Of a stretch of DNA of 64,000 nucleotides, positions 3,468-58,942 are shown piece after piece. Below the pieces are notes generated by a model that had not been told where the DNA came from, searched no databases, and saw nothing but the letters and a program-made list of their open reading frames with translations. Made by a program: the position numbers and the translations under genes. Origin of the DNA: an uncultured Gammaproteobacteria bacterium (lineage in GTDB: Bacteria > Patescibacteriota > Microgenomatia > 2-02-FULL-39-11); assembly GCA_964354025.1 (NCBI GenBank), contig CAYGXQ010000001.1, positions 5,963-69,962 on the forward strand, written 5' to 3'. Position 1 is the first letter of the stretch. Every line of letters begins with the position of its first letter.

Positions 3468-3553
3468 GGAGGCGTCCGATAGTGGTCAATTCGGGCGGTT
3501 TGCTAAACCGCTGAGCTGAAAGGCTCACGTGGGTTCAAATCCCACCGCCTCCG
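3468..3553 (+). tRNA. tRNA-Ser (anticodon GCU)
   Basis: Cloverleaf folded by hand. Acceptor GGAGGCG/CGCCUCC, long variable arm, T-loop GUUCAAAUC, anticodon loop UUGCUAA. CCA is not encoded. Confidence 0.85.
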
Positions 3554-3571
3554 CAAATTCCTGAAGTCTAT

Positions 3572-5002
3572 TTATAGTAAAAGAAAATGAGAGAGTGGAA
3601 TATTAACTGCTGTTTTACTTTCGTTTATTGATAAAGGTGATTTTGATACAACTAATCCGTATTTAGATTTTACACTCTTAGCAGTGTTATTTATTTGGGT
3701 AAATCCTTTTTTTCCGTATCCTACTTCTAATATAATATTTTGTTCATATAAACGGATAATAAAATCAGCTCCACCCGCTGCACTATCATAGGTAAGTGAG
3801 GCGTTTTTATTAACCAGACACCTTGTAAGATAAAGCCCTACCGTATCCTCCAACAACTTTCCCATATACATGTCTTGTCCGATGATATTTCCTACAAAGT
3901 TATAGTACATTGACCTAAAAGCCGGAGAAGCAAAAAGATATTTCGACGGCTTTCTCACTTGAGTTGCATGAGCTCCGTAAGGAAAGACTCTAAGCACTGT
4001 TTCTGTTTTCTCCAGCACATTTAATACCTGGGTAAGAGTTAATCTATCTATATCTAAATCGGGAGCTAAATTAGTAATGCTTAAAATATCGGTGGCGGCA
4101 ACCGTATATAAAATTTCGGGAATCTTTGAGATAATTTCATTTCTAAACTGCCCAAGTTGGGCAATATCCATACTTACCACTCTGTCTAATATCTTTTTTA
4201 TTTGGTCATAAACCAATCCCTCATTTTTCAACTTTACGGCAAACGGTAATGTTCCATATTTCATATATCTGTCTACCTCCAATCTCTCAATACCCATCCA
4301 GTACTGTTTTACTTCATTCTCCAGTATTTTTATTTGGTTAAATACTTCCTCAGATGTATTTGATTCGAAGACAGCCTTCCTTAATTTACCGGATAGTCCT
4401 TTTATTTCAAACTTGTTATCTTTAATTTTGATATATTCAGTAAAACTCATCGGATATAGCTTTTCAAAAATCACGCGTCTTGCTACATCAGGATTAGTTT
4501 GAAGCGTAACAGCAGAAGAGCCTGTTGCGAAAATGAAGACTTTTTTTGACCTGTCAAATATAGTTTTAAGGGTAATTGCCCATTTATTGTCATACTGCAC
4601 CTCATCAAGGAAAAGTACGACCGGTTTATCCAATCTTTCAAAGACGCTTCCCAAAATTTCTTCATAAGCGGACAACACATCGGAAAGCGTGACGCCTATA
4701 ATTTGGGTTATTTGGTCTACTGATAGAAAAAGTTTATTTACCCCAGGTTGAATAGTTTCATAAAATAGTTGAGAAAGAAGAGTTGTTTTCCCTACACCCC
4801 GAAATCCGGATATAGCTAACCAGCGAATTTCCGTATTATCCTGCCGAAAATCATTGTAATATTTATTTAGCTTCACATAACAATTGCGCTTAGGATTTTT
4901 GTTATTTTGTTCATCATATACATAGGCTCTGGCCCTGAAGTTTGCTTGAGCTATTTGTTCCTGAAGATATTTGAGAATAAGGTCTTTCTTCTCAGTAGTC
5001 AT
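3572..5002 (-). CDS. AAA-superfamily ATPase with DUF4143 (COG1373-like), paralog 1
   Basis: 476 aa. Walker A GFRGVGKTTL and Walker B LFLDEVQY. Paralogous to the genes at 13284 and 61119. Confidence 0.75.
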   Translation of the reverse strand: MTTEKKDLILKYLQEQIAQANFRARAYVYDEQNNKNPKRNCYVKLNKYYNDFRQDNTEIRWLAISGFRGVGKTTLLSQLFYETIQPGVNKLFLSVDQITQIIGVTLSDVLSAYEEILGSVFERLDKPVVLFLDEVQYDNKWAITLKTIFDRSKKVFIFATGSSAVTLQTNPDVARRVIFEKLYPMSFTEYIKIKDNKFEIKGLSGKLRKAVFESNTSEEVFNQIKILENEVKQYWMGIERLEVDRYMKYGTLPFAVKLKNEGLVYDQIKKILDRVVSMDIAQLGQFRNEIISKIPEILYTVAATDILSITNLAPDLDIDRLTLTQVLNVLEKTETVLRVFPYGAHATQVRKPSKYLFASPAFRSMYYNFVGNIIGQDMYMGKLLEDTVGLYLTRCLVNKNASLTYDSAAGGADFIIRLYEQNIILEVGYGKKGFTQINNTAKSVKSKYGLVVSKSPLSINESKTAVNIPLSHFLLL

Positions 5003-5408
5003 ATTACTAGTATATTACGCTAGACTAGAATAGTCAACTACTAGTGTATCCTACTATACTAGAGTACTGAAATGTGTCATTTAGCCTTGTATTTAAGGGA
5101 TTTACTAGTTTCCCCTTTTTCTTAAACTGTTTTACTTCATCCATTCATCCAGCCACATGCCGTTGTGATGGTCTTTAGCCCTGGTTTGCGCTTTGAGTAA
5201 CTCTTCATAAAGCATTGGTTTTCGCATTTTCCATTAATCAGTATTATATTTATAGTCTTCATGAGTTTATTTTATGATTTATATTAATGATAAAAAAGAG
5301 GTATATAAAGAGGAGAAAGAAAACCAAGTGTTGATACATTATATTAATTTTAGTTATTAAGAAGAAATAATAATTTTCATTTACGGCTTAGTCATGTAAA
5401 ATACAATT

Positions 5409-6260
5409 ATGAAGAGAGTTAACCCGCAACAACAAATAATTAATTATTACCACTCTGTTGAATCAAGACTCGGGTATGGATTCCTTTTAAGAGGGATTAA
5501 ACACTTTGGATATTATCCTCAAGATAAAAAACATATTTCCTTATGGAAAGCACAAATTCTTATGATTGATAAACTTGCTGAGACTATTAAATTGCCCAAG
5601 CATTCTTATCTTCTTGACGCGGGTTGCGGAGAAGGTTACACCGCTATTTACCTAGCAAAGCACTATCACTATCGTGTCTCAGGGGTAGATCTTTTGGATT
5701 TCAATATTACGAGCGCAGAGAAGAAGGCACAAAAAGAAAACGTGAAAGAAAAAGTAAATTTCCATATCATGAACTATGAACATCTAACCTATTCCGACAA
5801 TACATTTGATGGTGTTTATACTCTCGAGACTCTTGTTCATGCACAAAATTATATAAAAGCGCTAAGAGAATTTCATCGAGTATTAAAACCGCATGGAAAA
5901 ATTGTCCTCTTCGAATACACTATAGCACCACAAAAACTATTAACAAAGCAACAAAAAGAAATGGCGGTGCTCGTAAATAAAATGTCAGGAATGCATAGTT
6001 TCCCTCATTTTATTCATGGAAGTTTTCCCAACATCATGAAAGAGGCAGGTTTCACTACTGTATCTGTTACGGATATTACACAGGAAGTGTTGCCAGGGCT
6101 GAAATTTTTCTATTATCTAGCTTTCCTCGTTTATCCAATTATTAAGCTGTTGAAACTGCAAAAGATTTTTATAAATGCAACATGTGCTGTAGAGGCATAC
6201 AAAAATGTAAAGGATGATATTTTTCGCTATGTCATAGTAGAAGCAGTGAAAACACCGTGA
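5409..6260 (+). CDS. Class I SAM-dependent methyltransferase
   Basis: Motif I LDAGCGEGY and motif post-I VSGVDL. The gene body is AT-rich. Confidence 0.7.
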   Translation: MKRVNPQQQIINYYHSVESRLGYGFLLRGIKHFGYYPQDKKHISLWKAQILMIDKLAETIKLPKHSYLLDAGCGEGYTAIYLAKHYHYRVSGVDLLDFNITSAEKKAQKENVKEKVNFHIMNYEHLTYSDNTFDGVYTLETLVHAQNYIKALREFHRVLKPHGKIVLFEYTIAPQKLLTKQQKEMAVLVNKMSGMHSFPHFIHGSFPNIMKEAGFTTVSVTDITQEVLPGLKFFYYLAFLVYPIIKLLKLQKIFINATCAVEAYKNVKDDIFRYVIVEAVKTP

Positions 6261-11775: not shown

Positions 11776-11847
11776 GTTCCCGTAGCTCAACGGATAGAGC
11801 GCGGCCCTGCGGAGGCTGAAATACCAGTTCGATTCTGGTCGGGAACG
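11776..11847 (+). tRNA. tRNA-Arg (anticodon reads GCG)
   Basis: 72-nt cloverleaf. Acceptor GUUCCCG/CGGGAAC, T-loop UUCGAUU, anticodon loop CUGCGGA. Confidence 0.7.
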
Positions 11848-11853
11848 CAAAAA

Positions 11854-11939
11854 GGAGAGTTGGCTGAGCGGTTCAAAGCGACGGTCTCGAAAACCGTTCT
11901 CCCGTAAGGGAGGCGCAGGTTCAAATCCTGCACTCTCCG
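11854..11939 (+). tRNA. tRNA-Ser (anticodon CGA)
   Basis: 86 nt, long variable arm, anticodon loop CUCGAAA, T-loop GUUCAAAUC. It lies 6 nt after the tRNA-Arg. Confidence 0.8.
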
Positions 11940-12050
11940 CAAAATCTGAAAATTTCAATTAATATAGATTGTTATATAGCCTCAAAACTCATTTTAGGTT
12001 CTAACACTATGACGGGCTGTCTCAAAATTCCTAATTCTTAAAATATCCGT

Positions 12051-13193
12051 TTGAGATGTATAATTCACTATATGGCAATTGAATTAATTGGAATGACTGG
12101 TGGGCATCCAGAACAACTAAATCCTACTTTCGTTAATCCTGCAGTAATGGCGGTAGTAAATAATGCTAATTTGGAAAGAATTATTGCAAAAGGTTTAAAT
12201 GTATCTGACAGTGGACAAATTCCAATTACGGATGTAAGGGATCTTATTCAAATGAGTCAAGAGATAAGGACCGCCAGTAGAAAAGAGGTAGGAGGATTTA
12301 AAGAAATAGTCGTATATCTAGGTAAAAAAAGTCATGATATCAGTCGAGGAGTTGGTGCTGTTTCATTCGTAGGGGTAGAAAGAAGTGTTCCAATCCCTTT
12401 TGCTGGTCAAACAAGCGCAATTCTTGATGATCTTAGTCCTGAATCTGATATTTTAATAGTTCATTTACACCCAGAATCCCCAGAAGCAAGCAATGAAGAT
12501 TTAAGCGCATTACAAACAATCGCTAGAGCTTTATCAGTAAAATCAGATAGAAATATAAGAGCTTCCTTATTAATTATTGGGGATAAAGATAATGAGGAGA
12601 TACTCTACACTTTTGATTCCAGAGGCAAATATATGACTGTTATTTTGGAGAATTTACTTGCCAGAGAACGGTTATCCCCGCCTCTTTTAGATAAACTTTT
12701 TCTATTAATATACAGAGGTGATCGTTTTGATAAAGCAGCAGATGCTTATCAGTCAACATGGTATCGGGATAATAAATTATATCCGCCGGAAATTCCAGGA
12801 ATAGGTCTTCTTCTACCCGGTTATTTAAATTCTACACCCCAAACTGCGTCTATTCCAGATCAGGCAATTATTGCTGAACCAAAGTCGAATTTACTAGTTT
12901 TACGTAATACTGGAGATACAGGAAAGTGGCCTGTTATATATATTGAAAAAGATGGAATTGTTCAACCTCTTGAGCGTCAATATAATGGAAAACAATATTG
13001 TTATCTATTAAATGGGATACCCTATTTTGCAGCGCCAAATAGTTTTATTCTTACTTCTGGAGTGAAAATTGGTATTCCTCAGGGAGGAATAAAGGTTGCA
13101 GATTATAAAATTAATCTAACTGGAGGAAGAAATATTCATGAAATTGATATACTTGCTGTGCCAAAAGACTCACTTCCGAGGGAAGCAAAATAG
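12051..13193 (+). CDS. Hypothetical protein in an AT-rich island; weak JAB/MPN-like HxH...S..D motif
   Basis: HLHPESPEASNED resembles the JAMM motif HxHx7Sx2D but is one residue short. Otherwise no homology is recognisable. Confidence 0.35.
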   Translation: MRCIIHYMAIELIGMTGGHPEQLNPTFVNPAVMAVVNNANLERIIAKGLNVSDSGQIPITDVRDLIQMSQEIRTASRKEVGGFKEIVVYLGKKSHDISRGVGAVSFVGVERSVPIPFAGQTSAILDDLSPESDILIVHLHPESPEASNEDLSALQTIARALSVKSDRNIRASLLIIGDKDNEEILYTFDSRGKYMTVILENLLARERLSPPLLDKLFLLIYRGDRFDKAADAYQSTWYRDNKLYPPEIPGIGLLLPGYLNSTPQTASIPDQAIIAEPKSNLLVLRNTGDTGKWPVIYIEKDGIVQPLERQYNGKQYCYLLNGIPYFAAPNSFILTSGVKIGIPQGGIKVADYKINLTGGRNIHEIDILAVPKDSLPREAK

Positions 13194-13283
13194 ATTTTAA
13201 TACTGTAAATGGTTCTCCGTCTGGTGCGGGACAAATCCCTCTCCCACCGCATAAAGAGGAAGATTGCCATCTGACGGAAAAAT

Positions 13284-14567
13284 TTAAGATAAATAATTAT
13301 TATCAATTACCCACTTATAAACAGGGATTACTTTTATAATCTGTTTCTTATCCGGTATTTCCTGCTCGGTATTATAAGTCAATATCAAACCGCTGGTTAC
13401 TTTTAATTCTTCCATTGCCTGCTTTAGACTGTCGATCTCTCTTTTCTTCGTCATTTCATCATGTAAATCCCAACATACCTGAATCAGCGCTTTTTTCCTG
13501 TTTGGCAGTTTAATCAAAAAATCAATTTCTTTATTATTCCCGGTTTTATAAAAATAGGTTTCACAACCTTTTCTTAATAACTCCAGAAAAACGCACTGTT
13601 CCATAATTCTTCCCTTATCTTCTGAAAATCTGAAGGAGACGGTATTTGCCAGTCCGCAATCAACGGAATATATCTTTTTGCTAGCTTTTTGTTGAAACTT
13701 GAGAGAATAGGAAAATTGAGACAGTTCAAACGTTAAAAATGCTTCATTGAAATAATTCAGATAATCAGAAATAGTTTCAAAAGAAAGGGAAAAAGTTTTT
13801 TTCAGTGATTCTATAGAAACAGTTTTTGCGGAGTTGGTAATAAGAAATATTCCCATTTTTTCCAGAGTATCTTTTTGCCGCACATCATATCTCATAACAA
13901 TATCTTTCTGGATGATATCAAAATAATATTGTTTTAATAGAGAAAGATTTCCTGTTTTGACTATTTCAGGAAATCCGCCGATTAACAGATATTCATCAAA
14001 ATTTTTAAGTAAAGTTTTTTCCTTGAGTATCAAATCCTTTTTACTTTCTACTTTTATTTCCTTAAAAGATAGAAATTCGCTGAAGGATAAAGGCAGTACC
14101 GAATATGAGATATGCCTGCCGGTAAGCAGAGTGGATAATTCCCGGCTTAACAATTTTGAAGAGGAACCGGTAAGAAAAATTTTATAATTCCCGCCGTCTC
14201 TTAATTTTCTCACCGCGCTTTCCCAATGATTCACGGCGTGGATTTCATCAAAGAAAAGATATTTCAGATTTTGACTGAAATATTCTTTCTGGACTGAGAT
14301 CAATTCTTCTATAACTTCAGGTGAATTATGGGAAACAAAATAAGGATCTTCAAAATTGATAAACAGAAAATCATCAGTGAGTTTTAATTTTTTGATCAGC
14401 AGTTTCAGAATTGATGACTTACCGCTTCTTCTGGGACCAATAATGTCGATCGCTTCCTTGCTTTTATAATCGATATGATCCACAACAGGACGATAATGTA
14501 GGTCTTCCTCATAAGCAGTCTTTTTCCAGAAGTCTATAATTTTGACCAATTGTTGGGTATCATACAT
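13284..14567 (-). CDS. AAA-superfamily ATPase with DUF4143, paralog 2
   Basis: Walker A GPRRSGKSSIL and Walker B LFFDEIH. The architecture matches the genes at 3572 and 61119. Confidence 0.75.
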   Translation of the reverse strand: MYDTQQLVKIIDFWKKTAYEEDLHYRPVVDHIDYKSKEAIDIIGPRRSGKSSILKLLIKKLKLTDDFLFINFEDPYFVSHNSPEVIEELISVQKEYFSQNLKYLFFDEIHAVNHWESAVRKLRDGGNYKIFLTGSSSKLLSRELSTLLTGRHISYSVLPLSFSEFLSFKEIKVESKKDLILKEKTLLKNFDEYLLIGGFPEIVKTGNLSLLKQYYFDIIQKDIVMRYDVRQKDTLEKMGIFLITNSAKTVSIESLKKTFSLSFETISDYLNYFNEAFLTFELSQFSYSLKFQQKASKKIYSVDCGLANTVSFRFSEDKGRIMEQCVFLELLRKGCETYFYKTGNNKEIDFLIKLPNRKKALIQVCWDLHDEMTKKREIDSLKQAMEELKVTSGLILTYNTEQEIPDKKQIIKVIPVYKWVIDNNYLS

Positions 14568-14626
14568 ACTAGAGTATAGTTTACTATAATATTAGATTAT
14601 AGTCAAGTATAGTTGATGATATCTTG

Positions 14627-15922
14627 TTACTTCATCCGCTTCTGGAGGTCTGATTCGACTGTCTGGCGGTCTTCTCCGAATTTCTTTTGGGATTGGATTT
14701 TAAACTCCTCAACTTTCGCTTTGTCAGGTTTATTTTCCGGTAAATTTTGTTCAAAATTGACCGGTTCTTCTTTAATGGCGACATTTCCCTCCTGAAGCGT
14801 TTTGAGATAAGCCTGGTATTTTTTAAGGAGACAAAGTTTGTCGACCGTGATATTTTGGGAATGAAATTCGGGTGCAACTACCTGAGCCTCTTCCGTTGTT
14901 TGTCTGAAAGAGACAAGCGTACCGACTTTTGATAAAGCTCTTTTAAGCGGAAGAGACGCTTCAGAGATTTTATTGGTCGTCAGAGTAAGGTTAATGCCGT
15001 ATCTTCGGTTTTCCATTAATAAATCGCACATTAAGGTTGTTGGCCAGGCTGAAGCTTCATCTATATAAAGATTAACGATTGGATTGCCGGCGGAATGTTC
15101 CAAATAATTGATGAGCTTAAAAAGAAGGATAGTAGTAATGATTTTATTGACATCGCTATTTTTCTTGAGGTTTTTGAAATCAAAGAGAATGATTTGATAA
15201 TTTGAAAAAAGTGACGGAAAAGAAAAGGTTGATTTTGGTTGTCCCAGAATATAGCGCATGGATTTATCGGTCACAAACAGACCGAGTTTTGAAACGATAT
15301 AATCCAATACTTCTGATTTATGAAAGTCAGAGGTTTGGGCGACCTGCTTATTCCAGTAATTCAGGACAATAGGATCCTGCACTTTCGGTAAAATATTTTT
15401 TAAGTACGAAGCATCCGTCAAACAGCGGAGAAGTTCGACAAAAGAAGCATTTTCGTCGTACAGAATTGTTAAAATGGCATTTCTGACCGCGTGTTCGAAA
15501 CGCGGTCCGATGACGCCGGTATGTTTCGGGTCATACAAATCATACATGAGGCTGATCAGGATATTGGCGATTTGTTGTCTGTTTTTCTCGTCTTTTTCTT
15601 CAAACAGATTAAGGCCAACAGGAAAGTCATTATTGCCCAGGTCCAGATAAGCGATTTTTGGCAACGTTTCGTTATCAGCACTGGTAATAATTTCTTCAGC
15701 CAGATCGCCATACTGATCGAATACGACAATGGGACAGGAGGAACGGATATCCTGATTGATTAAATTAAAAAAATATCTGGAAACACCGACTCCGGGAATA
15801 CCGGTGACAAGGATATTTCTTGACCGGTCGTCCGGGGACAAAAAAAGATTTTTAAAAATTTCCAGACCGTTAGTTGGATTATTCATATATTTATATACTA
15901 ACAAATTGGTTTTATTATTCAA
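14627..15922 (-). CDS. P-loop NTPase of the HerA/FtsK/VirD4-like (DUF87-type) class, with an atypical Walker A
   Basis: Walker B LYIDEASAW. Walker A reads GIPGVGVS, with Val in place of the canonical Lys. No TM segments. Confidence 0.5.
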   Translation of the reverse strand: MNNKTNLLVYKYMNNPTNGLEIFKNLFLSPDDRSRNILVTGIPGVGVSRYFFNLINQDIRSSCPIVVFDQYGDLAEEIITSADNETLPKIAYLDLGNNDFPVGLNLFEEKDEKNRQQIANILISLMYDLYDPKHTGVIGPRFEHAVRNAILTILYDENASFVELLRCLTDASYLKNILPKVQDPIVLNYWNKQVAQTSDFHKSEVLDYIVSKLGLFVTDKSMRYILGQPKSTFSFPSLFSNYQIILFDFKNLKKNSDVNKIITTILLFKLINYLEHSAGNPIVNLYIDEASAWPTTLMCDLLMENRRYGINLTLTTNKISEASLPLKRALSKVGTLVSFRQTTEEAQVVAPEFHSQNITVDKLCLLKKYQAYLKTLQEGNVAIKEEPVNFEQNLPENKPDKAKVEEFKIQSQKKFGEDRQTVESDLQKRMK

Positions 15923-15990: not shown

Positions 15991-16281
15991 ATGGGAAGTG
16001 AGAATATTACGAATTTTCAATGGGACAAGGGAAATATCGGGAAAAACCTTAAACATAAAGTGATGGATGAAGAGACAGAACAGGTATTTTTTGATAAGAA
16101 TAAAGTAATTTCAGAAGATATCGCTCACTCGCAAAAAGAAAAAAGATATATCATTATCGGTAAAACGAAAGAAGGAAGGTTACTTTATACAGTATATACA
16201 TTTAGAGGAAACAAGATAAGAGTCGTTTCCTCAAGAGATATTAATAAAAAGGAGGTTCATTTTTATGAAAAAGCCGCTTAA
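15991..16281 (+). CDS. brnT: BrnT-family ribonuclease toxin
   Basis: N-terminal FQWDKGNIGKNLKHKV matches the BrnT signature (FxWDxxKxxxNxxKHGV). It overlaps the downstream antitoxin gene. Confidence 0.65.
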   Translation: MGSENITNFQWDKGNIGKNLKHKVMDEETEQVFFDKNKVISEDIAHSQKEKRYIIIGKTKEGRLLYTVYTFRGNKIRVVSSRDINKKEVHFYEKAA

Positions 16282-16531
16282 ATTGCCAAAATTTAAGAAT
16301 GAGGAGGAAGAAAGAAAATATTGGTGGAATCTGGACCTTTCCGGATATTTTGAACCGTCTGATTTCAAAAAAGGCGTGACATTTCCGAATCTTAAGCCAA
16401 CTACCACTCCCATTTCTATCCGTATTCCGAAGTACCTTTTAAATCGGGTCAAAGAAAAAGCAAATGAACTGGCGATGCCTTATCAGAGCCTGATTAAGCA
16501 GTATATTCAAAAAGGAGTGATGGCAAGATAA
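16265..16531 (+). CDS. brnA: BrnA-family antitoxin
   Basis: 88 aa with a C-terminal RHH-like segment (ISIRIPKYLLNRVKEKANE). It overlaps the brnT stop. Confidence 0.6.
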   Translation: MKKPLKLPKFKNEEEERKYWWNLDLSGYFEPSDFKKGVTFPNLKPTTTPISIRIPKYLLNRVKEKANELAMPYQSLIKQYIQKGVMAR

Positions 16532-16550: not shown

Positions 16551-17030
16551 ATGATCAAAGAATTTTCCGCCGGAGGAATTGTTTATAAGCGTAAAGCGGA
16601 AAGCGTAAAGCGGAAAGCCAGTGATGTTGTTTGGTTAGTATGTCAACATTCGCAGCATAAGGGCTGGGTTTTTCCGAAAGGCTTTATCGGCGACCACCCT
16701 TCGACAAGCTCAGGGCAAGCAGAATCTGAAGAAGAAGCGGCTTTGCGGGAAGTGGAAGAGGAGACTGGCGTCAAAGGCAAAATCTTAGCCAAACTGCCCA
16801 AACCCGCCGGATATTTTTACGTTTGGAAAGGCGAGAAACGTTTTAAAACCGTCTATTATTTCCTGATGGAATATGCAGGAGGAGACATAAAAAACCATGA
16901 TTTCGAAATGATGAAAGTCGAATGGTGGCCGAGGGAGAAAGTGGAAAAAAGTTTGACGTATAAGTCCGATAAGACCGCCTTTGCCGAAGCGTTAAAATTA
17001 TTTAATGATGCGGAGTACAATAAATCCTGA
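16551..17030 (+). CDS. NUDIX hydrolase
   Basis: Nudix box (E)x7REVEEETGV. Confidence 0.8.
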   Translation: MIKEFSAGGIVYKRKAESVKRKASDVVWLVCQHSQHKGWVFPKGFIGDHPSTSSGQAESEEEAALREVEEETGVKGKILAKLPKPAGYFYVWKGEKRFKTVYYFLMEYAGGDIKNHDFEMMKVEWWPREKVEKSLTYKSDKTAFAEALKLFNDAEYNKS

Positions 17031-17088: not shown

Positions 17089-17277
17089 GCGCCTGTAGCT
17101 TAACTGGACCTGCCCGCAAATGCCTCGCATAGCGATGTCAGGCGGGTAGAGCATCCCGATTTGCTCCCGTAGCTTAATGGATAGAGTAGTGGTTTCCGGA
17201 ACCGCTGATGCCAGTCCGATTCTGGCCGGGAGCGCAACATCGGGGCGGTTGGAGGTTCGAGTCCTCTCAGGCGCGCA
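17089..17277 (+). other. Split tRNA-like locus. A 5' tRNA half (17089-17158) and a matching 3' tRNA half (17236-17277) flank the intact tRNA-Arg(CCG).
   Basis: The 5' half has acceptor GCGCCUG and a D-arm carrying a ~38-nt insert. The 3' half has T-arm GGAGGUUCGAGUCCUCU and CAGGCGC+G, which pairs perfectly with the upstream 5' acceptor. UCCCG (17154-17158) can pair with CGGGG (17241-17245) as an anticodon stem. Confidence 0.35.
17163..17234 (+). tRNA. tRNA-Arg (anticodon CCG), nested inside the split tRNA-like locus
   Basis: 72-nt cloverleaf. Acceptor GCUCCCG/CGGGAGC, anticodon loop UUCCGGA. The T-loop is the atypical UCCGAUU. Confidence 0.6.
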
Positions 17278-17373: not shown

Positions 17374-17459
17374 GGAGAGGTGTGATAATTGGTAGTCGGC
17401 GCGCTTGGAAAGCGCGTGTCTCGGAAACGAGATTACGGGTTCGAGCCCCGTCCTCTCCG
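17374..17459 (+). tRNA. tRNA-Ser (anticodon GGA)
   Basis: 86 nt, long variable arm (UCUCG-GAAA-CGAGA), anticodon loop UUGGAAA, T-loop GUUCGAGCC. Confidence 0.85.
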
Positions 17460-17598
17460 CAAGAAAAAGGTACCGTAAGAAATGGACTTCTATTTCGGCT
17501 TAAATTCCTTATGTGTCAAGCTAATACAAACCTGGTGTGGATATAATGGTGTGGATATAATAATTGATATCGGTAGCTGTTAGCTGTACCATATAAAT

Positions 17599-25361: not shown

Positions 25362-26750
25362 ATGGCCGTACAACTTGACTACCTTGCTCCATCGGGCTGG
25401 CAGCCGGAGAATCCGGATGAAAATTACGTTTTGGCCCAGTATAAACTGGAACTGGCGGACGGGATTGATAAAAGCATGTTTGTCCAGGCGGCCGCCTCAA
25501 TCGCCGCCGAATCCTCCACCGGTACCTGGACCAAAGTGGATGCGGGACCGGATTCGGGTATAAAAGTCGCCGAGCAATATAAAGCGGTCGTTTATGACAT
25601 TGATGAGGCAAGCCGTCTTTTCAAAGTCGCATATAAAAAGGATCTCTTTGAAAGAGATAATCTCTCCGGTCTTTTGGCCGGGCCGGCCGGTAACATCGCC
25701 GGAATGAAAATGGTCAAGGCTATGCGGCTTTTTGATATCCGTTTCCCCAAAGTGATGGTTGAGGCTTTCCCTGGACCAAGATACGGCGTTTTGGGAGTGC
25801 GTGACCTTTTGAGCCAAAGCGATGAACAAAGACAAATGCCGATTTTAGGCACTGTCGCCAAACCGAAAGTCGGAAGAACTGCCGGTGAGCAGGCTATTTT
25901 GGCTAAAAGATTGTGGACGGCCGGCGGAGGACTTTACGATTTCATCAAAGATGACGAGAATCTGACCAGTTTGCCTTTTAATAAATTTGAAGACCGCGTC
26001 CGTTTAGTCCATCAAGTCCAAAAAGAGCTGGAAGGAAAAGGCGGCCCCAAAAAACTGTATCTGTGCAACATCACCCATTCCAATCTCGATGTGATGTTGG
26101 AAAGAGCCAACTTGATCAAAGAAAACAGCGGCAGATGTTTAATGATTGACGCAGTGGTTACCGGTTTTTCCGCAGTACATACCCTCAGGTTGAAAAATCC
26201 GGATTTGATCATCCATGCCCACCGGGCGATGCACGGTTTTTTGACGCGGGAAAGCGGTAAAGATTTTATGGGCAGCGGATCTTTGCAGGGATTCAGTATT
26301 TCCATGATTTTACTGGCAAAAATATACCGATTATTGGGAGTGGATTCCCTGCATTCCGGTTCCCCGAAGGCCAAAATGGAGGATTACGGTGAAAGCGGGG
26401 AAATCATGCGTTTACTGACAACGGAAATTACTCCGCCAAATTCCAATTATCATTCTTTAGGGCAAAACTGGTTTGGGAAGTATAAGGTTTGGCCGGTGGC
26501 CTCCGGCGGATTGCATCCGGGAGTGATGGATAAAGTGATGGAAGCCTTCAGCAAAGATTGTTATATCCAGCTCGGCGGCGGAGTTTTGGGGCACCCGCAA
26601 GGGATAGAACGCGGAGTGGAAGCGGCCATTGAGGCAAGAAAAACTGTAATGAAAGGAATGACAATCAATGATTATGTCCGGAAATACCCTGAGTCTGCCC
26701 TTTCTGCCGCCGTCAAACTTTGGGGTACCGAGCCGAAGATTGTTTACTGA
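25362..26750 (+). CDS. rbcL: Ribulose-1,5-bisphosphate carboxylase large-subunit homolog (form II/III-like)
   Basis: GGLYDFIKDDENL, the active-site Lys context MPILGTVAKPKVG, and HAHRAMHG. Size is 462 aa. Confidence 0.85.
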   Translation: MAVQLDYLAPSGWQPENPDENYVLAQYKLELADGIDKSMFVQAAASIAAESSTGTWTKVDAGPDSGIKVAEQYKAVVYDIDEASRLFKVAYKKDLFERDNLSGLLAGPAGNIAGMKMVKAMRLFDIRFPKVMVEAFPGPRYGVLGVRDLLSQSDEQRQMPILGTVAKPKVGRTAGEQAILAKRLWTAGGGLYDFIKDDENLTSLPFNKFEDRVRLVHQVQKELEGKGGPKKLYLCNITHSNLDVMLERANLIKENSGRCLMIDAVVTGFSAVHTLRLKNPDLIIHAHRAMHGFLTRESGKDFMGSGSLQGFSISMILLAKIYRLLGVDSLHSGSPKAKMEDYGESGEIMRLLTTEITPPNSNYHSLGQNWFGKYKVWPVASGGLHPGVMDKVMEAFSKDCYIQLGGGVLGHPQGIERGVEAAIEARKTVMKGMTINDYVRKYPESALSAAVKLWGTEPKIVY

Positions 26751-26778
26751 TAGAAGAGGAGAGTATAATATAAAATCT

Positions 26779-27987
26779 ATGGAAGAATTGGACAGGCTAT
26801 ATCCTTTGATTACGAGCGAAGACCTGACGAAGTACGCCAAACTTTTCCAAAGGGATTTGATCGCCGCTTTGCACAACCAACAGTCTTCGCTTCCTTCCAT
26901 CCTCAATCCCATCCATAAAATTTCAGCCAAAGAGGGTTTTGGAGTGGCTCTCTCCATCGGCGGGACCAACGGTTATGTCTCGGCCTTCCGGATCTCCCGG
27001 AAAAAGGTGATCACTTTCTTAAACCGGAAAATATTTAATCTGCCGGAAAAAACGACCAGGGAAGAACTTTTTCATTTAATCACTAAAAATGTTTTTGCGG
27101 TGGCCTCCGGCCGGAAGAAAAAATTCCCCATAGGTATCGGTCTGGCATACACGCTGAAGCCGGTGCTTCACCACCGCTTCATCGACGGCACTTTGATGTA
27201 TATGTCCAAGGGCAGGGAGATTGAGGGACTGGTGGGACTGCGGGTCGGACAGGAATATCATAAATTTTTAATCGATAAATACGGGATTGATACGGAAGTG
27301 GCGGTGGCCAACGATGCCATTTGTCTGCTTTTGGGCGGAGACGGAGTGGAAATTGCCGGAGTGGTTGGGACAGGACTTAACTTCGCCTATTGGGAAAAAA
27401 GGACGGCCATTGCCCCTTTGAAACTCGGGGAGCTTAATAATTTCTGCCAGGGGGATATCGCCGTCAACATTGAGTCAAATAATTTTGACAAGATAGAGGG
27501 GACGAAGTTAAGAAGCATTGTCGATAAAGAAAGTGAAGATGTTGGATATTCTCTGGCGGAAAAAGAAGCCTCAGGTGCTTATCTGTACCGGCTGTTTAAT
27601 GCCGGAAAAGTGAAACTTTTGGGCAAAGATTTTCCCGATCTGTCTTCCACCGATCAGCTGAACGATATTCTGACGGGCGCTTATATTTTTCCGAAAAATA
27701 TCAGTCAGGAAAAAATAAAAAAGGCCGGACTTTTTGCCCAGCGACTGTTACATCGGAGCGCCCAGATTACGGCCATCCAGTTATGCGGGATCTTCATGAA
27801 AATCGGCAAAACCAAAGGAATAGTATCGGTAGTTATGGAAGGCGGGATTTTTTGGAAAGCGAAAAACTACGCTTCCTTGGTTAACCTTTACGTCAATATG
27901 ATCTTGCCGGAAGTGATCCCTTCTTTTGCCCGGCTTTTTGGAAGCAGTCGTCGCGGAATGGCCATTCTGGCCAGCAGCTTGATCTAA
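26779..27987 (+). CDS. Hexokinase-family sugar kinase
   Basis: SIGGTN, VAVANDAICLLLG, VVGTGLNFAYWE and VNIESNNFD map onto the hexokinase phosphate-1, connect and adenosine motifs. The start is set at an ATG preceded by GAGGAG. Confidence 0.55.
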   Translation: MEELDRLYPLITSEDLTKYAKLFQRDLIAALHNQQSSLPSILNPIHKISAKEGFGVALSIGGTNGYVSAFRISRKKVITFLNRKIFNLPEKTTREELFHLITKNVFAVASGRKKKFPIGIGLAYTLKPVLHHRFIDGTLMYMSKGREIEGLVGLRVGQEYHKFLIDKYGIDTEVAVANDAICLLLGGDGVEIAGVVGTGLNFAYWEKRTAIAPLKLGELNNFCQGDIAVNIESNNFDKIEGTKLRSIVDKESEDVGYSLAEKEASGAYLYRLFNAGKVKLLGKDFPDLSSTDQLNDILTGAYIFPKNISQEKIKKAGLFAQRLLHRSAQITAIQLCGIFMKIGKTKGIVSVVMEGGIFWKAKNYASLVNLYVNMILPEVIPSFARLFGSSRRGMAILASSLI

Positions 27988-28205: not shown

Positions 28206-31200
28206 ATGAGTTCACCGGAACACGGACATCATGGAGGAGACGCCAAGCCGGATTTGATGAAAAGGCTGGCTCAATTTTTTAGGGCGCTTTTTCAAAATAA
28301 AGCGGAGAAAGAGATGGCTGAAAGGGCAGCCGCGGGAGAAATCGCTAAGCGCGATTACGCCAAACACGAAACTGAAGCAAAATGGGAAGAGGAAAGAAGA
28401 AAACGGGAAGAAAGAGACCGGACACGAAAATACCATGAAGCCAGAAGCGCGGAAGTGGCTGAAGCCGAGGTGGAAGTAACCAGACGGCAAAACGCACAGA
28501 AAGTGAGAGATAAGCTGCAAGATGTAATCAATGATACCTCCGGTCAAAACGATATCGAAGGTTCAAGATATCTAATGGCGGAGATAAGAGGAAATACACA
28601 TGTACAAGAAGCCTTGAAGCATCTAATTGACGAAAGTCCCAACGCTAGGGAAGTCATCAGGGAGTTTTTGACGCAAGATAAGCGGGTTCACGGGAGAAGT
28701 CGGGAACTGATCAAACTGACACAGGCGCTTTTGTATGAAGCCCAAAAAACCGGTGACATAGGCAACTTGGATTCTTTTATTACCCAAGTAAAAAAACAAA
28801 TTGACGGACTTTTGATAGATGAATATTCCGCGGCAAATAGAGCAGCTAGGGGAAGGAGGGGGCAGGGATTTAATACTTTCAAGGAATTCTTAGAGGAGGA
28901 ACCGGGAATCGTGATGACTGATGACGAACAAAAAGAACTACAAACGCCTGTTTATTATAAAGATAAAGATAATAAAGATACAGATAGAGTCAATGAAACG
29001 GAAACTACGGAGAAATGGAAAAGAATAGTTCAGGAAATGGTGACAGAACCTCGAGTTGGTACCGTCCGAGCTTTTACTGCTGCGAAAGTAGATAAATTTG
29101 CCGAGAATTATGGCGGCAATATTCCTGACAGTCAAGTTGTCATTGATAAGATGGTGGCGCCGCTTGACCGGGTTTGGGGCGAGCTTGAAAGGAAAGATGT
29201 TGCCGGACAGTTAACGAGTGAAGATTTAATCAAATACAGCCGACAATTAGTCAGGGAAGAATCGCAGATCCGGCCAACTGATGTGGCGCCGGGAAGTGAT
29301 GCTTATTTTGCCGCTTCTCGAGCAATGGGGGATTACATGAATAATAAATTGGAAATTTTAGCCAAGAAGCTGGAAGAAAAATTAAAAGCGGAGAAAGTGG
29401 TCATGAAAGAAGGGATTAACGATGAGACGGAATTTTTGGCGGAAATGGCCAAAAGAAAAGGCCGGATAGGAGATTTGTTTGAACTTAACCCGGCGATGGA
29501 AGAACTTTTATACGGATTGGATGATAAAAGCCGTAAGTTTCGGGATAGAGTTTTTATGAATATCCACTCCAGAGTTTTATCCGATCAACGGAATTCCTCA
29601 AACGATAACTTCGGCCTTTACGAGCGGGCGGATTTTTCGACTATAATTGATCTTTTAAAAGTAGGATTGGAAAAATTTAAGGTAATGGAAACAGGCAGAA
29701 GTTTGGGTGAAACTCTAAGCGACCATTACAATAATCTCAGCAACGCCATCCGCCAGTGCCGGGACATTGATTTTTGGGCCTCCCAACCGGCTGCCAATTC
29801 GGAGAACTTCAACAAATCTCTCGGCATGTTCCAAAATGAGTATGTCAAAGAAGCTCTTAACATCCCTGGGGTGATAGTGGCTTTCCGGGCTTTTGAGGAT
29901 AATCTTCGCAGTATTATCGCTTCCAACGACGGTTATCTGCCGCCGGCTCTCATGGAATACGATGCGACCAGCGGACGCTCTTTCTGGGATAACATGTCCC
30001 GGGCACAGGTTGAGAAAATGGTCGGCATGGGAGTGGTCCCGGGTATCAAAAGAGATGAAAGAAATTATTATCTTCATGTCAGAAATAAAGACGGCTATTC
30101 AGTCGAGATGGACTTTAAAAATCCTTTGAAAAAAGAGGATGTTTCCTCCGATGAGTATCTGATGTATATGACTTTGGCCAAAGGGATCGGAATGGCCACT
30201 GCCCGGTATCTGGAAATGATTGCCCAGACGAAAGTCCCGGGGTCGGACAATCCGACGCTGGGTTTGGATACTTTCCACAGTATGCCTTATGAGGGAATGG
30301 CGAAAGCGATGAACTATTTTAATGTCTATATTGAGAAATGGAAAATGGGTTCATATAAATACGGCCATCTCATGAATATGCTGATACCGGATGAAAAAAA
30401 TAGGATGACAATAGACCAAAATGATTCTACTTCAGCCATCCGCGCTTATATGGCTTACCAGGACGGCACTTTTGAGGAAAAATTCGGCACTGATGCCAAA
30501 AGATTTATTGACCTGACTAATTTCTCCGGCATTTCCTCGGCTATAGGCAAAGACACAACCTGGCGGCAATATGACATGACGCTTGACTGGGAGGACCGGA
30601 AAAAAGAATTTTTAGGCGGTCCGACGCAGCTGGTTTTAAGCAAAAGATACGCGGAGGAGAAAGTCAAAGACCATCTGGTAGTGGCCAAATATCGGGAGCA
30701 ATACCGGCAGGAACTAATCAGCCAAAAATCCGGACTGCCGACCAGCGGCGCCGGTTTTGATAAGCTTTGGCGGGAATACGGGAAAAATAGATATGCTTAT
30801 AACATTGAAAAGGAATGGGAAAAACTTAACGGGCTTGACCCTAAAAAAGGCAGACAGCATACGGCTTTATGGCATCAGACAGACCATTTGATAGGAGCAT
30901 ATAGAAATGCCTTGAAGGCGAGAGTCTGGGTAGAGATGGCCATGAGAAATCCTCTGGTGGTGGCTCACAGCTTAAAAGTCGACCTTCCTTTGGTTGGGGG
31001 AGAGAAACGGAAGAAACAGATGACTCTTCATACCATGCTGGTACAGGATATTTTAGGCATTCCGCCGGAAGATACGAAATACGGTGAGGAAGTCGGTAAA
31101 TCCGCTACCAGAAAATCACCGACAAAACAGCAAGAACAATACATGATTGACGTCATGAATCTGGAGTGGGATCTGGCGGCAGTACGGGAGAAAGCCATCA

Positions 31201-32180
31201 ATGGTGAAGATACAGAATATGTGAGAGATCTGACCGATAAGGATTTTAAGGTTATTGGAGATGAAAAAAGGAAAGAACAGGCTTTGGCTTACTGGAGAAG
31301 AGTGAAAAAAGTAATTTTAGGCAGCGAAGATTCGGCTGAAGCGGATAGATTGATTAAACATTTTGGTTTGGGTCTGATGGAAAATCAGGTGGATTACGAA
31401 TGGGATCATCATCACATCCATGAATTGATGACCGATAAAAAGGACGGCTTTTTGGATAAATTAGATAAACAGTTAAATCAAAGTCCGATGTTTACGATTG
31501 TCGGTTCAGACGGCCAACAGATCGAAATCCCTTTTCTTTTGAAAAAAGCGGTGAAGATGGAGCCGGAGTGGATTTTAGGAACTGACGATATGGTTTTTAA
31601 CAAAATGGATATCCTCAATCTCGGTTCAAGACAGCTGATAAGAAGAGGAGGCGATATTGCCGCCCACCAGGCCGGCGGCGATGCCGTTATTCAGTATCTC
31701 CTGTATGGTTTAACGCCAACGCCAAATAAGGAAGAAGCGGTGAAACTGCTTGCCAAACTTCGTGATGCCTACTCCGGCGATATGATTGAAATCGGTTGGT
31801 CAGTTGGATCCAATCTTGCTTACATGACTGACCGGCTTTATGCCTGGGATTGGAATCATTATGGGCAGTCGGTCGCGCAAAGAGATGTCTGGGGTACAAG
31901 AAGAGGAGTGGCCTCCTGGTTAGCCAATGAAAGACGGGAATGGTGGGATACTTTGGAACACGCTGATGTTTTTCCGCCGAACGCGCATTCTTACTTTTAT
32001 AACATCGATGATAAAGTAAATATCCATACAATGAGAAAATGGTGCCACGCGGATAATTCGGATGTCTGGAAAGAAATCATTGCCCTGGGAGTTTTACTGG
32101 CTTTGGCGATCACCATCTACCGTGCCTTCACCGCCCCAAGTGAAGAAGAAGAGGGCGGCGGTAAAGGCGGACACCATTAG
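28206..32180 (+). CDS. Giant hypothetical protein (1324 aa), with a charged coiled-coil-like N-terminus, one C-terminal TM helix, and an EEEEGGGKGGHH tail
   Basis: A single long ORF with CDS-like composition; no catalytic motif recognised. Convergent with the VirB6-like gene. Confidence 0.6.
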   Translation: MSSPEHGHHGGDAKPDLMKRLAQFFRALFQNKAEKEMAERAAAGEIAKRDYAKHETEAKWEEERRKREERDRTRKYHEARSAEVAEAEVEVTRRQNAQKVRDKLQDVINDTSGQNDIEGSRYLMAEIRGNTHVQEALKHLIDESPNAREVIREFLTQDKRVHGRSRELIKLTQALLYEAQKTGDIGNLDSFITQVKKQIDGLLIDEYSAANRAARGRRGQGFNTFKEFLEEEPGIVMTDDEQKELQTPVYYKDKDNKDTDRVNETETTEKWKRIVQEMVTEPRVGTVRAFTAAKVDKFAENYGGNIPDSQVVIDKMVAPLDRVWGELERKDVAGQLTSEDLIKYSRQLVREESQIRPTDVAPGSDAYFAASRAMGDYMNNKLEILAKKLEEKLKAEKVVMKEGINDETEFLAEMAKRKGRIGDLFELNPAMEELLYGLDDKSRKFRDRVFMNIHSRVLSDQRNSSNDNFGLYERADFSTIIDLLKVGLEKFKVMETGRSLGETLSDHYNNLSNAIRQCRDIDFWASQPAANSENFNKSLGMFQNEYVKEALNIPGVIVAFRAFEDNLRSIIASNDGYLPPALMEYDATSGRSFWDNMSRAQVEKMVGMGVVPGIKRDERNYYLHVRNKDGYSVEMDFKNPLKKEDVSSDEYLMYMTLAKGIGMATARYLEMIAQTKVPGSDNPTLGLDTFHSMPYEGMAKAMNYFNVYIEKWKMGSYKYGHLMNMLIPDEKNRMTIDQNDSTSAIRAYMAYQDGTFEEKFGTDAKRFIDLTNFSGISSAIGKDTTWRQYDMTLDWEDRKKEFLGGPTQLVLSKRYAEEKVKDHLVVAKYREQYRQELISQKSGLPTSGAGFDKLWREYGKNRYAYNIEKEWEKLNGLDPKKGRQHTALWHQTDHLIGAYRNALKARVWVEMAMRNPLVVAHSLKVDLPLVGGEKRKKQMTLHTMLVQDILGIPPEDTKYGEEVGKSATRKSPTKQQEQYMIDVMNLEWDLAAVREKAINGEDTEYVRDLTDKDFKVIGDEKRKEQALAYWRRVKKVILGSEDSAEADRLIKHFGLGLMENQVDYEWDHHHIHELMTDKKDGFLDKLDKQLNQSPMFTIVGSDGQQIEIPFLLKKAVKMEPEWILGTDDMVFNKMDILNLGSRQLIRRGGDIAAHQAGGDAVIQYLLYGLTPTPNKEEAVKLLAKLRDAYSGDMIEIGWSVGSNLAYMTDRLYAWDWNHYGQSVAQRDVWGTRRGVASWLANERREWWDTLEHADVFPPNAHSYFYNIDDKVNIHTMRKWCHADNSDVWKEIIALGVLLALAITIYRAFTAPSEEEEGGGKGGHH

Positions 32181-32196
32181 TTACTACTAGTTACTA

Positions 32197-33726
32197 CTAC
32201 TTGTGAGTTCCTTTATCTCCACCTCCGAAGATACCGCTGGCCATCATTTTCAACTGGCCCATATAGTAGAACTGGCTGGCCGCGCCCATGGCCGTCTGGA
32301 AAGAACCGGTCAAAGGCGCCATGATGGTGCCCGGAGAAACAGGCAGGGCCGGTTTAGGCGCGAACATCTTTTTGATCGAGGCAATCAAAGTCGGGGCCAT
32401 GAAAAGGACACCGATGCCGATAAAAGCGGAAAAAACAGGAGGAGTCCCTATGCCCAAAAGAGGCGGTTGCCAGGCCGTGTTTTCCGGATTTTGGGAAGTC
32501 AAAAACATGGCAAACATCAAGACGGCGGCGGTGGCCGGGAAGACGACCAGATTAGCAATGACATTTAAAATCCAGTCGGTAAAAGCGGATTTGCCGGGGA
32601 CAGCCTCCGCCAGAAGCTGGATCGGGCCAATGATCAAAGAAATCATCACCTGGATATAGGAATTCACCAGAAGAAGTACCAGTCTGATGAAAGTAAAAAG
32701 CAGTCCCAGAGCCAAAATCAATATAATAATAGCTGATGGAGCAGCAGCGACAGCTGCTGTGCCCAAACCGATAGTAACGAGACCGGGAATCATAGAAATG
32801 AGTCCAATTACAACAGAGATACCGCCCAGTTGACCTCCATAACCTTTGATAAAATCGTCTACAGATCGGAAGCCGCCGCTGAAAACCGATCCGGCTAAAG
32901 TGCCTAACCCGCCGGTCATATACTGGCTTTGCAGTTCCGCCACTTTTGAAGCAAAACCGCCGCCCATGCCCTGAGCCATGACAGAGATCAGGATAGCCAT
33001 GACCAGATACATCATGTCAATCAGAAAACCGACGATCGGATAAGAAAGGGTGATCAGGACTAAAGTCAGAATGATTTTTGGTAAAGCCGCCTGAAGAGAG
33101 ATGACTGTTTTCGGATCAATTTTCATCCGGAAGATGATCATGAAGCCGATGGCCACCATGACGATAATCAAGATAGCGTAAGCAATATTTCGGGAAGTTT
33201 TCCAAAGAGAAAGAAGCGGGGTCATGGCGGCAAAACCGATCCCTTGGGCAAAAACAGGCTTGATAAAGCCGGCGTTGGCCAGATAGTCACGGGCATAATA
33301 GGCAAAACTGGCCGGAGGATTAGCGTAAATGGATGCTATAACTGTGCTGATATTTCCCAGAGCCGTTTGCTGCGGATTACAATTGTTATCATCAGGAAGG
33401 CAGACTAACAAACTAGTAATAGCGGCCACTTGGACATTAGCGATAAAGATGCTATGAGGGACCGCAGAAATATCAGTTTGTCCTTCTTTGGCTTTTTCCT
33501 CAGTAATATTTAAGTCGTTGACGATTTCCTTCAAACCCATCCTCCAATATCTTGTAGCGGTAGCGGCCGTAGCTTCTTTGGGGAATGAGAAGAATGGAAT
33601 TGCGGCAATAAATATCAAAAGTAAAAATCTGTAGATTTTGGGCAGACGGAGCATATTTTTATTATTCTGCTTTTTGACGGTGGTGTCAATCCTGTATTGT
33701 GTTATTGTCATCCCGACCGATTCCAC
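32197..33726 (-). CDS. VirB6/TrbL-like polytopic membrane protein (putative type-IV-secretion channel component)
   Basis: Signal/TM followed by an extracytoplasmic segment, then 8 or more TM helices and a Gly-rich tail. It sits directly downstream of six VirB2/TrbC-like genes. The true start is probably the ATG at 33711. Confidence 0.45.
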   Translation of the reverse strand: MESVGMTITQYRIDTTVKKQNNKNMLRLPKIYRFLLLIFIAAIPFFSFPKEATAATATRYWRMGLKEIVNDLNITEEKAKEGQTDISAVPHSIFIANVQVAAITSLLVCLPDDNNCNPQQTALGNISTVIASIYANPPASFAYYARDYLANAGFIKPVFAQGIGFAAMTPLLSLWKTSRNIAYAILIIVMVAIGFMIIFRMKIDPKTVISLQAALPKIILTLVLITLSYPIVGFLIDMMYLVMAILISVMAQGMGGGFASKVAELQSQYMTGGLGTLAGSVFSGGFRSVDDFIKGYGGQLGGISVVIGLISMIPGLVTIGLGTAAVAAAPSAIIILILALGLLFTFIRLVLLLVNSYIQVMISLIIGPIQLLAEAVPGKSAFTDWILNVIANLVVFPATAAVLMFAMFLTSQNPENTAWQPPLLGIGTPPVFSAFIGIGVLFMAPTLIASIKKMFAPKPALPVSPGTIMAPLTGSFQTAMGAASQFYYMGQLKMMASGIFGGGDKGTHK

Positions 33727-58861: not shown

Positions 58862-58868
58862 ATCTTTG

Positions 58869-58942
58869 GGTGACCGAGCGGGTTTGAACCGCCGACCTTC
58901 TCGTTCACAGCGAGATGCTCTACCAATTGAGCTACGGCCACC
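58869..58942 (-). tRNA. tRNA-His (anticodon GUG), with an encoded G-1
   Basis: The reverse complement folds as GGUGGCCG...anticodon loop CUGUGAA...GGUUCAAACCC...CGGUCACC. The extra 5' G pairs with the discriminator C. Confidence 0.85.

Follow-up and report, generated by a model that had tools for sequence, protein, structure and literature searches.

A VirD4/TrwB-like ATPase lacking the Walker A lysine and membrane anchor, a proposed non-hydrolysing adaptor or regulator, in a patchwork segment between tRNA genes

The genes lying between two tRNA pairs on contig CAYGXQ010000001.1 (assembly GCA_964354025.1) raise two questions: whether they act together as one system, and what role an ATPase among them could have when its Walker A motif has no lysine. 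The whole stretch that we analysed, referred to here as the window, is 64,000 nucleotides long (positions 5,963 to 69,962 of the contig), and all positions below are counted from its first letter. An earlier reading of the sequence (the original prediction) had described a tRNA-adjacent island with the composition of a new defence locus, containing a protein with a JAMM-like motif and a HerA/VirD4-like ATPase of regulatory or pseudo-ATPase character, and all of the open reading frames (ORFs) it listed are present as described. Our overall reading is that the segment is a patchwork and that the ATPase is a VirD4/TrwB-type protein probably working as a non-hydrolysing adaptor or regulator, to which we assign a probability of about 0.65.

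The ATPase gene is found at 14627-15922 on the minus strand and encodes 431 aa from a TTG codon; translation possibly starts at an ATG at 15886 to give 419 aa, as called on identical Logan contigs. In its translation the degenerate Walker A motif reads GIPGVGVS (15779-15802, minus strand) with Val47 replacing the lysine, and the Walker B motif predicted to be intact, LYIDEASAW, is found at 15044-15070 (minus strand) with D288 and E289 kept. We aligned the protein with 120 homologues, 81 of them long paralogues that we call canonical and 39 belonging with the query to a short clade (40 with the query). The valine occupies a column that is lysine in 81/81 canonical paralogues, where the motif reads IGKTGxGKS, and a family profile aligned GxxGxGVS of the query to GATGTGKS of TrwB and the LYIDE region to the TrwB Walker B. 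No second P-loop was found in the 431-aa protein. Since the profile alignment to TrwB and the fold matches described below agree, the Walker A assignment is right, and because GIPGVGVS aligns with both GATGTGKS and the 81 canonical IGKTGxGKS motifs, the predicted change from lysine to valine is real.

A Pfam scan of the 431-aa protein gave no match and scans with NCBIfam and PADLOC gave only marginal matches to TraD and HerA, though a database search returned 731 homologues. The AlphaFold2 model, built on 58 homologues, is confident, with a predicted local distance difference test score (pLDDT) of 92.1. Searching with this model in Foldseek, the best match was TrwB of R388 (~410 columns, E 1e-11, template modelling score (TM) 0.60), the top 14 matches were all TrwB chains with a TM of about 0.60, and HerA and VirB4 came next. 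On this model the protein is predicted to have the fold of TrwB, a type IV coupling protein (T4CP), made up of a RecA-like nucleotide-binding domain and an all-alpha domain that spans residues ~112-242 (15197-15589, minus strand, from the AlphaFold2 helices). The HerA half of the original class assignment did not hold up and was dropped, as the HerA hidden Markov model (HMM) matches were marginal and near Walker B (E 0.012-0.032) and the HerA structural matches were weaker than those to TrwB (TM 0.44-0.53 vs about 0.60), leaving no HerA/FtsK-type architecture; the VirD4 half stands, as TrwB/VirD4-like, on the Foldseek and profile results. A hydrophobic 19-mer that might serve as an N-terminal anchor was found neither in the query nor in the other short-clade proteins, and no virB4 or relaxase gene is among the annotated neighbours within ~5 kb of the ATPase gene.

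The loss of the lysine is not peculiar to this protein. Its 39 nearest relatives (37-90% identity) make up the short clade, which is monophyletic in a neighbour-joining tree holding 36 short-clade sequences, query included. Mean tree depth is 0.296 for the short clade vs 0.129 for the canonical proteins, from which we estimate that the short clade evolves about 2.3 times faster. The motifs IGKTGxGKS, DPHGD, LYVDEFQNFATPDFA and ANQ are invariant across the 81 canonical sequences. In the short clade the Walker A lysine column is non-basic (V/M/I/L/A/T) in 32 of the 37 sequences that cover it (V19, M5, I4, R3, K2, A2, T1, L1), the Asn of the N-Q motif that follows Walker B is present in 0/40 vs 81/81 canonical sequences, and the FQNFATPDFA stretch, invariant in canonical proteins, is gone. 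Other parts of the site are kept in the clade: the Gly-rich loop (G41 in 35/37, G46 in 37/37), Walker B (D in 38/40, E in 33/40) and a conserved Arg (39/39). Conservation between the two clades is highest in the all-alpha domain, with a cross-clade identity of 56% and 57% of canonically conserved positions kept, vs identities of 31% and 23% and kept positions of 33% and 14% in the two halves of the nucleotide-binding domain, and the 78 positions conserved jointly in both clades are concentrated in the all-alpha domain. Judged from these sequences, the subfamily has lost the anchor, the N-terminal domain discussed below, the Walker A lysine and the N-Q motif; the all-alpha domain is what it retains most strongly, along with its RecA-like fold, the glycine-rich loop, D-E of Walker B and the Arg. 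We looked in the literature for coupling proteins that are lysine-less or pseudo-ATPases and came upon no account of such a subfamily; the parent VirD4/TrwB-like family is already known.

To place the short proteins within the family, we scanned GTDB species-representative contigs, in which the family has at least 571 loci, and examined the 80 best, no two of them from one assembly. Among these best 80 of the at least 571 family loci, five were lysine-less and 75 canonical. The complete canonical ORFs (n=71, threshold ≥760 aa) are 773-814 aa long and have an N-terminal hydrophobic segment in 71/71 cases, and an N-domain of ~320 aa was detected in 74/75 canonical loci, so ordered that the N-terminal hydrophobic anchor is followed by the ~320-aa non-transmembrane domain and then by the ATPase. 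The five lysine-less loci encode proteins of 413-424 aa without the hydrophobic segment and without the N-domain, and no remnant of the N-domain was detectable in these five loci or in the window. Many canonical database entries (about 425-490 aa) seem to begin at an internal Met. A small same-strand gene ending in SIRWLVEWS.KI abuts or overlaps the start of the canonical gene in 36/75 loci (for example L034, 6139-6915 and 6912-9248), and in 15/75 a divergent TPR gene stands in its place. For the lysine-less genes no conserved neighbour was seen across eight other contexts. Several of these contexts are rich in accessory genes, with Fic-domain genes near the ATPase gene in two of them and a ComFC-like gene in one, which we judged coincidental; an rve integrase and a zeta-toxin-like kinase also lie near other lysine-less genes, in a pattern that is inconsistent. 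These Fic, rve, zeta-toxin and ComFC neighbours are at 974-1912 and 3922-4953 in L094, 3020-4168 and 6194-6721 in L096, and 6426-7121 in L095.

A protein missing the N-terminal 350 aa and key catalytic residues of its paralogues, and on which Pfam models fail, could come from a pseudogene in decay or from faulty annotation, as a truncated piece of the long canonical gene. Between the gene in the window and its 90% orthologue in a related genome, the ratio of nonsynonymous to synonymous substitutions (dN/dS) is 0.146, compared to 0.03-0.18 for five flanking genes, which shows purifying selection acting on the ATPase gene. About 40 sequence clusters (37-90% identity) contain undisrupted ORFs of 388-434 aa, the 78 jointly conserved positions and the confident model (pLDDT 92) speak for a maintained protein, and upstream of the gene there is no trace of the N-domain. 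The selection and conservation data rule the pseudogene reading out, and what probability we leave to it is minute.

Mutational work on TrwB limits what a lysine-less protein can do. The K136T mutant of TrwB has no ATPase activity and gives no transfer, and coupling proteins without their anchor do not support conjugation (PMC7431656). Judged by these published results, the lysine-less protein cannot be a classical coupling ATPase. We propose that it would no longer hydrolyse ATP alone and would instead be a soluble, non-catalytic adaptor or regulator derived from a membrane-anchored Patescibacterial coupling ATPase. Its all-alpha domain may bind the same partner or substrate as that of the canonical ATPase, and the protein may enter mixed rings in which its retained Arg is donated to a catalytic neighbour. 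The regulatory or pseudo-ATPase role suggested originally is in line with the clade-wide loss of the lysine, the degenerate hydrolysis motifs, the preserved all-alpha domain and the dN/dS of 0.146. It is also possible to be more specific and suppose that Microgenomates evolved a soluble pseudo-ATPase that presents the all-alpha domain on an inert RecA-like scaffold and acts in trans on the canonical machine, where it might cap or intercalate into the hexamer or compete for substrates; in this detailed form the proposal is tentative and, to our minds, rather doubtful.

Several observations weigh against a non-hydrolysing role. Still in place are the Gly-rich loop, the Ser/Thr that follows the missing lysine and the D-E of Walker B; the subclade of the query has a Lys or Arg two residues past the lost lysine (GVGVS-R/K), five clade members carry K or R at the canonical position, and no canonical paralogue is present within the 64-kb window. 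From its sequence, the lysine-less protein may still bind nucleotide or keep residual hydrolysis. Together with the retained Arg and the strong purifying selection, all of these features except the missing paralogue favour the alternative that the protein is an active NTPase or translocase, a divergent soluble motor using a compensating basic residue or another catalytic arrangement. With that said, the basic residue at +2 is not clade-wide (T, E, Q, V, F and others occur there), the N-Q motif and FQNFATPDFA are gone, no part of the protein is less conserved than the nucleotide-binding domain, and TrwB K136T is without ATPase activity (PMC7431656). We consider an active motor unlikely and favour the adaptor or regulator.

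The second question, whether the ATPase and its neighbours form one system, was addressed by comparing the window to a related genome (L004/L005). The segment is bounded on the left by tRNA-Arg(gcg) (11776-11848, plus strand) and tRNA-Ser(cga) (11854-11940, plus strand) and on the right by tRNA-Arg(ccg) (17163-17235, plus strand) and tRNA-Ser(gga) (17374-17460, plus strand), all four called by ARAGORN. Between these pairs, in order, are a JAB/MPN-like ORF, an AAA_14-DUF4143 ATPase gene, the lysine-less ATPase gene, a BrnT/BrnA pair and a NUDIX hydrolase gene. The flanks are collinear in the related genome (genes for a 578-aa protein, an RRM protein, and proteins of 84 aa and 177 aa) at 88% nucleotide identity. 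There the order is tRNA-Arg(gcg)/tRNA-Ser(cga), a 60-aa gene, DUF2177, DUF1295, the ATPase orthologue (90%), NUDIX (84%) and tRNA-Arg(ccg)/tRNA-Ser(gga), and the JAB-like, DUF4143 and BrnTA genes are absent between the L004 tRNA pairs. The ATPase and NUDIX genes are resident, since they are collinear between the same tRNA pairs in both genomes. The JAB-like and DUF4143 genes fill a variable slot beside tRNA-Ser, and BrnTA accounts for an indel of its own between the two genomes, the gap from ATPase to NUDIX being 640 bp in the window vs 55 bp in L004. The segment is therefore a patchwork of two resident genes and three independently variable accessory elements and not one system. Window positions 5356-5917 are 96% identical, in inverted orientation, to L004 1-562, which lies beyond the tRNA-Ser(gga) end of L004; this piece is about 11 kb off its collinear place, indicating a rearrangement between the two related genomes.

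The original prediction of a new defence locus envisaged something different, namely that these four or five genes are an undescribed multi-gene anti-phage system acting together on a tRNA-integrated island. The segment does lie between tRNA genes with a G+C of 0.33-0.37, below much of the window, its gene content varies between close relatives, the DUF4143 ATPase matches the PADLOC candidate PDC-S01 (6.4e-108), the JAB-like protein weakly matches PADLOC JAB models, and BrnTA is a toxin-antitoxin pair. However, each gene has homologues that stand by themselves elsewhere, and none of the other loci examined holds any two of these genes: a tblastn search of all island proteins against 93 loci (1.13 Mb) found no other co-occurrence, and across 96 loci overall neither the JAB-like gene, DUF4143 nor BrnTA was found with a lysine-less ATPase. 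The ATPase and NUDIX genes reside in the related genome without the others, the JAB-like and DUF4143 genes are convergent on opposite strands, and there are three DUF4143 genes in the window. Synteny largely refutes the idea of a single defence system, and we regard it as highly improbable.

Pairs of tRNA genes flank both sides of the segment and its content varies among relatives, but no integrase ORF is present between 11940 and 17163 in the ORF list or by Pfam, and there are no credible direct repeats duplicating a tRNA 3′ end, as would be expected of a tRNA-integrated island. The only att-type candidate found when repeats of the tRNA-Ser 3′ end were sought is a 17/25 match, too weak to use. 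It repeats, in direct orientation, the 3′ terminus of tRNA-Ser(cga) (11918-11942) and is located at 13228-13252, where 90 bp separate the JAB-like gene from the DUF4143 gene; it may be what is left of an old att site, or the resemblance may be accidental.

The JAB-like gene, accessory and very rare, runs on the plus strand from 12051 (TTG; 380 aa) or 12072 (ATG; 373 aa) to 13193. The start is most likely the ATG at 12072, because all three known members of the family begin MAI(E/Q)LIG. In 5.8 billion clusters, a word-indexed search recovered nothing beyond the protein and one relative at 62% identity; searching 1.84 billion representatives exhaustively with HMMER brought a single further member, at 37%. 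As predicted, the translation contains a JAMM-type putative metal-binding motif, H-x-H-x6-S-x2-D, as HLHPESPEASNED at 12462-12500 (plus strand). The H-to-S spacing is x6 in all three members, one residue shorter than the canonical x7, and H131, H133, P134, S140, D143 and the upstream E78 (373-aa numbering) are invariant among them. A search for the pattern H.HP.{5,8}S..D in the ORFs of all six frames, over about 1.1 Mb of loci, recovered only the JAB-like family and two genuine RadC genes, so this is not a chance motif.

Whether the motif sits in a JAB/MPN fold was approached with profile comparisons, the predicted class being reached by weak, convergent HMM and hhalign results and by no match above threshold. 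There was no Pfam or NCBIfam match above threshold, and a sequence search of the PDB with the family profile gave nothing meaningful (one match, E 0.66). PADLOC JAB models matched weakly at 5.9e-4 and 0.053, Pfam Prok-JAB matched one member at a weak 0.16, and the phage minor-tail family phrog_30 matched, again weakly, at 0.11, different members of the family giving these matches. Aligning the family to a 58-sequence RadC alignment with hhalign gave a probability of 50.6% (P 1.6e-4), over a region that takes in the preceding helix, a strand and both H-x-H-P and S-x-x-D, the loop being gapped by one residue. Beta structure predominates in the C-terminal ~180 aa, which could be assigned to no family. 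Taken together, these comparisons make it likely that the N-terminal half forms a JAB-like domain whose metal site is intact, and the protein is probably of JAB/MPN type, a putative Zn-dependent (iso)peptidase-like protein.

Caution is needed here also, as the JAB assignment comes from sub-threshold HMMs, a 50% hhalign match and a fold search on a model with a pLDDT of 44.8, and two of the three contexts of the JAB-like gene are on very short contigs (1.8 and 2.5 kb). In these, the other two genes lie amid housekeeping genes, one between a methyltransferase and an EpmA/LysRS-like gene and the other between CoaBC and a DEAD-box helicase. The 380-aa protein might not be a JAB/MPN enzyme at all, the conserved motif then belonging to an unrelated fold or to an inactive MPN scaffold. 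Apart from the missing Pfam and NCBIfam matches and the empty PDB search, the loop one residue under canonical, the poor AlphaFold2 model, and the limited extent of the hhalign match (41 columns), in which the RadC catalytic Glu aligns to Ala, would fit such a view. On the other side, separate weak matches from three libraries are all to JAB-type families, and the H, H, S, D and upstream E78 are invariant at 37% identity; we give this alternative a minor but real share and retain the JAB-like assignment.

The remaining genes of the segment are accessory apart from NUDIX. The AAA_14-DUF4143 ATPase gene (13284-14567, minus strand) has an intact Walker A (GPRRSGKS), and its product matches Pfam AAA_14 (1.5e-34), DUF4143 (4.3e-26) and, weakly, Mrr_cat (0.0016), with a full-length match to PADLOC PDC-S01 over residues 23-423. 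Three diverged copies are present in the 64 kb, at 3572-5002 (minus strand), 13284-14567 (minus strand) and 61119-62423 (plus strand), the outer copies having 34% and 22% identity to the middle one. All three have a tRNA gene at a distance of 18 bp to about 2.2 kb: the first copy immediately adjoins tRNA-Ser(gct) (3468-3554), the second is 1.3 kb from tRNA-Ser(cga) and the third about 2 kb from tRNA-His (58868-58941). This distribution suggests that DUF4143 ATPases are a proliferating accessory family that prefers tRNA-proximal sites; a literature search on DUF4143 and defence found nothing specific. In the 59-bp gap between the stop of the lysine-less ATPase gene and the start of the DUF4143 gene, three overlapping or tandem AT-rich units of ~23 nt (ATACTAGAGTATAGTTTACTATA and variants) occupy 14566-14621 and may be a promoter or operator of the DUF4143 gene.

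The BrnT toxin gene (15991-16281, plus strand; Pfam BrnT_toxin 6e-20) and the BrnA/CopG antitoxin gene (16265-16531, plus strand; Pfam CopG_antitoxin 2.2e-24) overlap by 17 nt, and with scores of 71.8 bits (cut-off 34.5) and 86.4 bits (cut-off 28) they are, by Pfam thresholds, a predicted type II toxin-antitoxin pair. The NUDIX hydrolase gene, resident by synteny, is at 16551-17030 on the plus strand (Pfam NUDIX 1.1e-15). A perfect 14-nt tandem duplication (AAGCGTAAAGCGGA x2) is found within it at 16587-16614, and its product is 159 aa in the window vs 148 aa in the related genome. As for the host, the best homologues of the 431-aa ATPase come from Gottesman-, Roizman-, Woese- and Levybacteria, and the window looks like a chromosome of Microgenomates (Patescibacteria/candidate phyla radiation). 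It also holds a transfer-messenger RNA gene, histidine-biosynthesis genes, and a RuBisCO-like large subunit gene, a hexokinase-like gene and an HMG-CoA reductase gene among 25362-26750, 26668-27987 and 37402-38706, as well as a 1324-aa ORF (28206-32180) and a 509-aa ORF (32197-33726), both without a Pfam match.

A survey of Patescibacteria counted 5,713 VirD4-like genes in 2,918 genomes, about 2 per genome, mostly far from virB4, and its authors considered exaptation possible (PMC12102498); Walker motifs go unmentioned in that survey (PMC12102498). Genes of this kind number in the thousands and mostly lie away from secretion genes (PMC12102498). Here we describe a conserved, selected subfamily that has dropped the anchor and the hydrolysis residues and has retained the all-alpha domain, a retention that points to this domain as the functionally critical surface. 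The subfamily suggests a layer of regulators or adaptors in the process served by the VirD4-like ATPases of these ultra-small episymbiotic bacteria. If the reading of the protein as a pseudo-ATPase regulator is true, no catalytically dead paralogue of a coupling protein would have been described before it, and it would help in finding out to what the orphan Patescibacterial T4CP-like ATPases bind. The locus is also a caution for island-based inference, as a defence-like cluster flanked by tRNA genes proved to be resident genes with unrelated accessory genes inserted among them. The JAB-like family is extremely rare, with three members in 1.84 billion representatives, and its interest is limited pending a function or partner.

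Compared to known systems, the JAB-like protein differs from RadC/prokaryotic JAB proteins and from the Cap3 type of cyclic oligonucleotide-based anti-phage signalling systems in its loop, which is one residue shorter, and in having only sub-threshold HMM matches. It has additional N-terminal (~50 aa) and C-terminal (~180 aa) regions relative to RadC and prokaryotic JAB proteins, it is without the HhH domain that RadC has, and unlike Cap3 its gene has no ubiquitin-like/E1/E2 or CD-NTase neighbours. The DUF4143 ATPase shares with PDC-S01, a single-gene defence candidate (COG1373-type), the AAA_14 + DUF4143 architecture and a weak Mrr-like nuclease signal; PDC-S01 is a candidate family only, with a putative role in defence, and the gene here is multi-copy and unlinked to the other genes discussed.

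For the lysine-less ATPase, non-catalytic P-loop folds with conserved interaction surfaces are found in the FtsK-like D2/D3 domains of EccC/EssC (type VII secretion) and in the clamp-loader subunits delta/delta′, and these degenerate units have regulatory or adaptor roles. The likeness is that the P-loop fold is kept and the catalytic residues are lost, as judged for our protein from sequence and model; in our case the degenerate unit has a gene to itself, unlinked to any other. With TrwB (R388)/VirD4 it shares a full-length structural match, the RecA-like nucleotide-binding domain with an inserted all-alpha domain, and a Walker B of the form hhhhDE (here LYIDEA, D288/E289). It differs from them in having no Walker A lysine, no N-terminal transmembrane domain, a sequence identity of only 14-15%, and no type IV secretion system or relaxase genes among the annotated neighbours within ~5 kb. 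The canonical Patescibacterial VirD4-like T4CPs are about 775-815 aa long with an anchor and the ~320-aa N-domain, and have IGKTGxGKS, DPHGD, LYVDEFQNFATPDFA and ANQ and the usual upstream partner or divergent TPR gene, all of which the lysine-less clade is without. Even so, the two are clearly paralogous, sharing 34-41% identity and occurring in the same phyla (Microgenomates and relatives).

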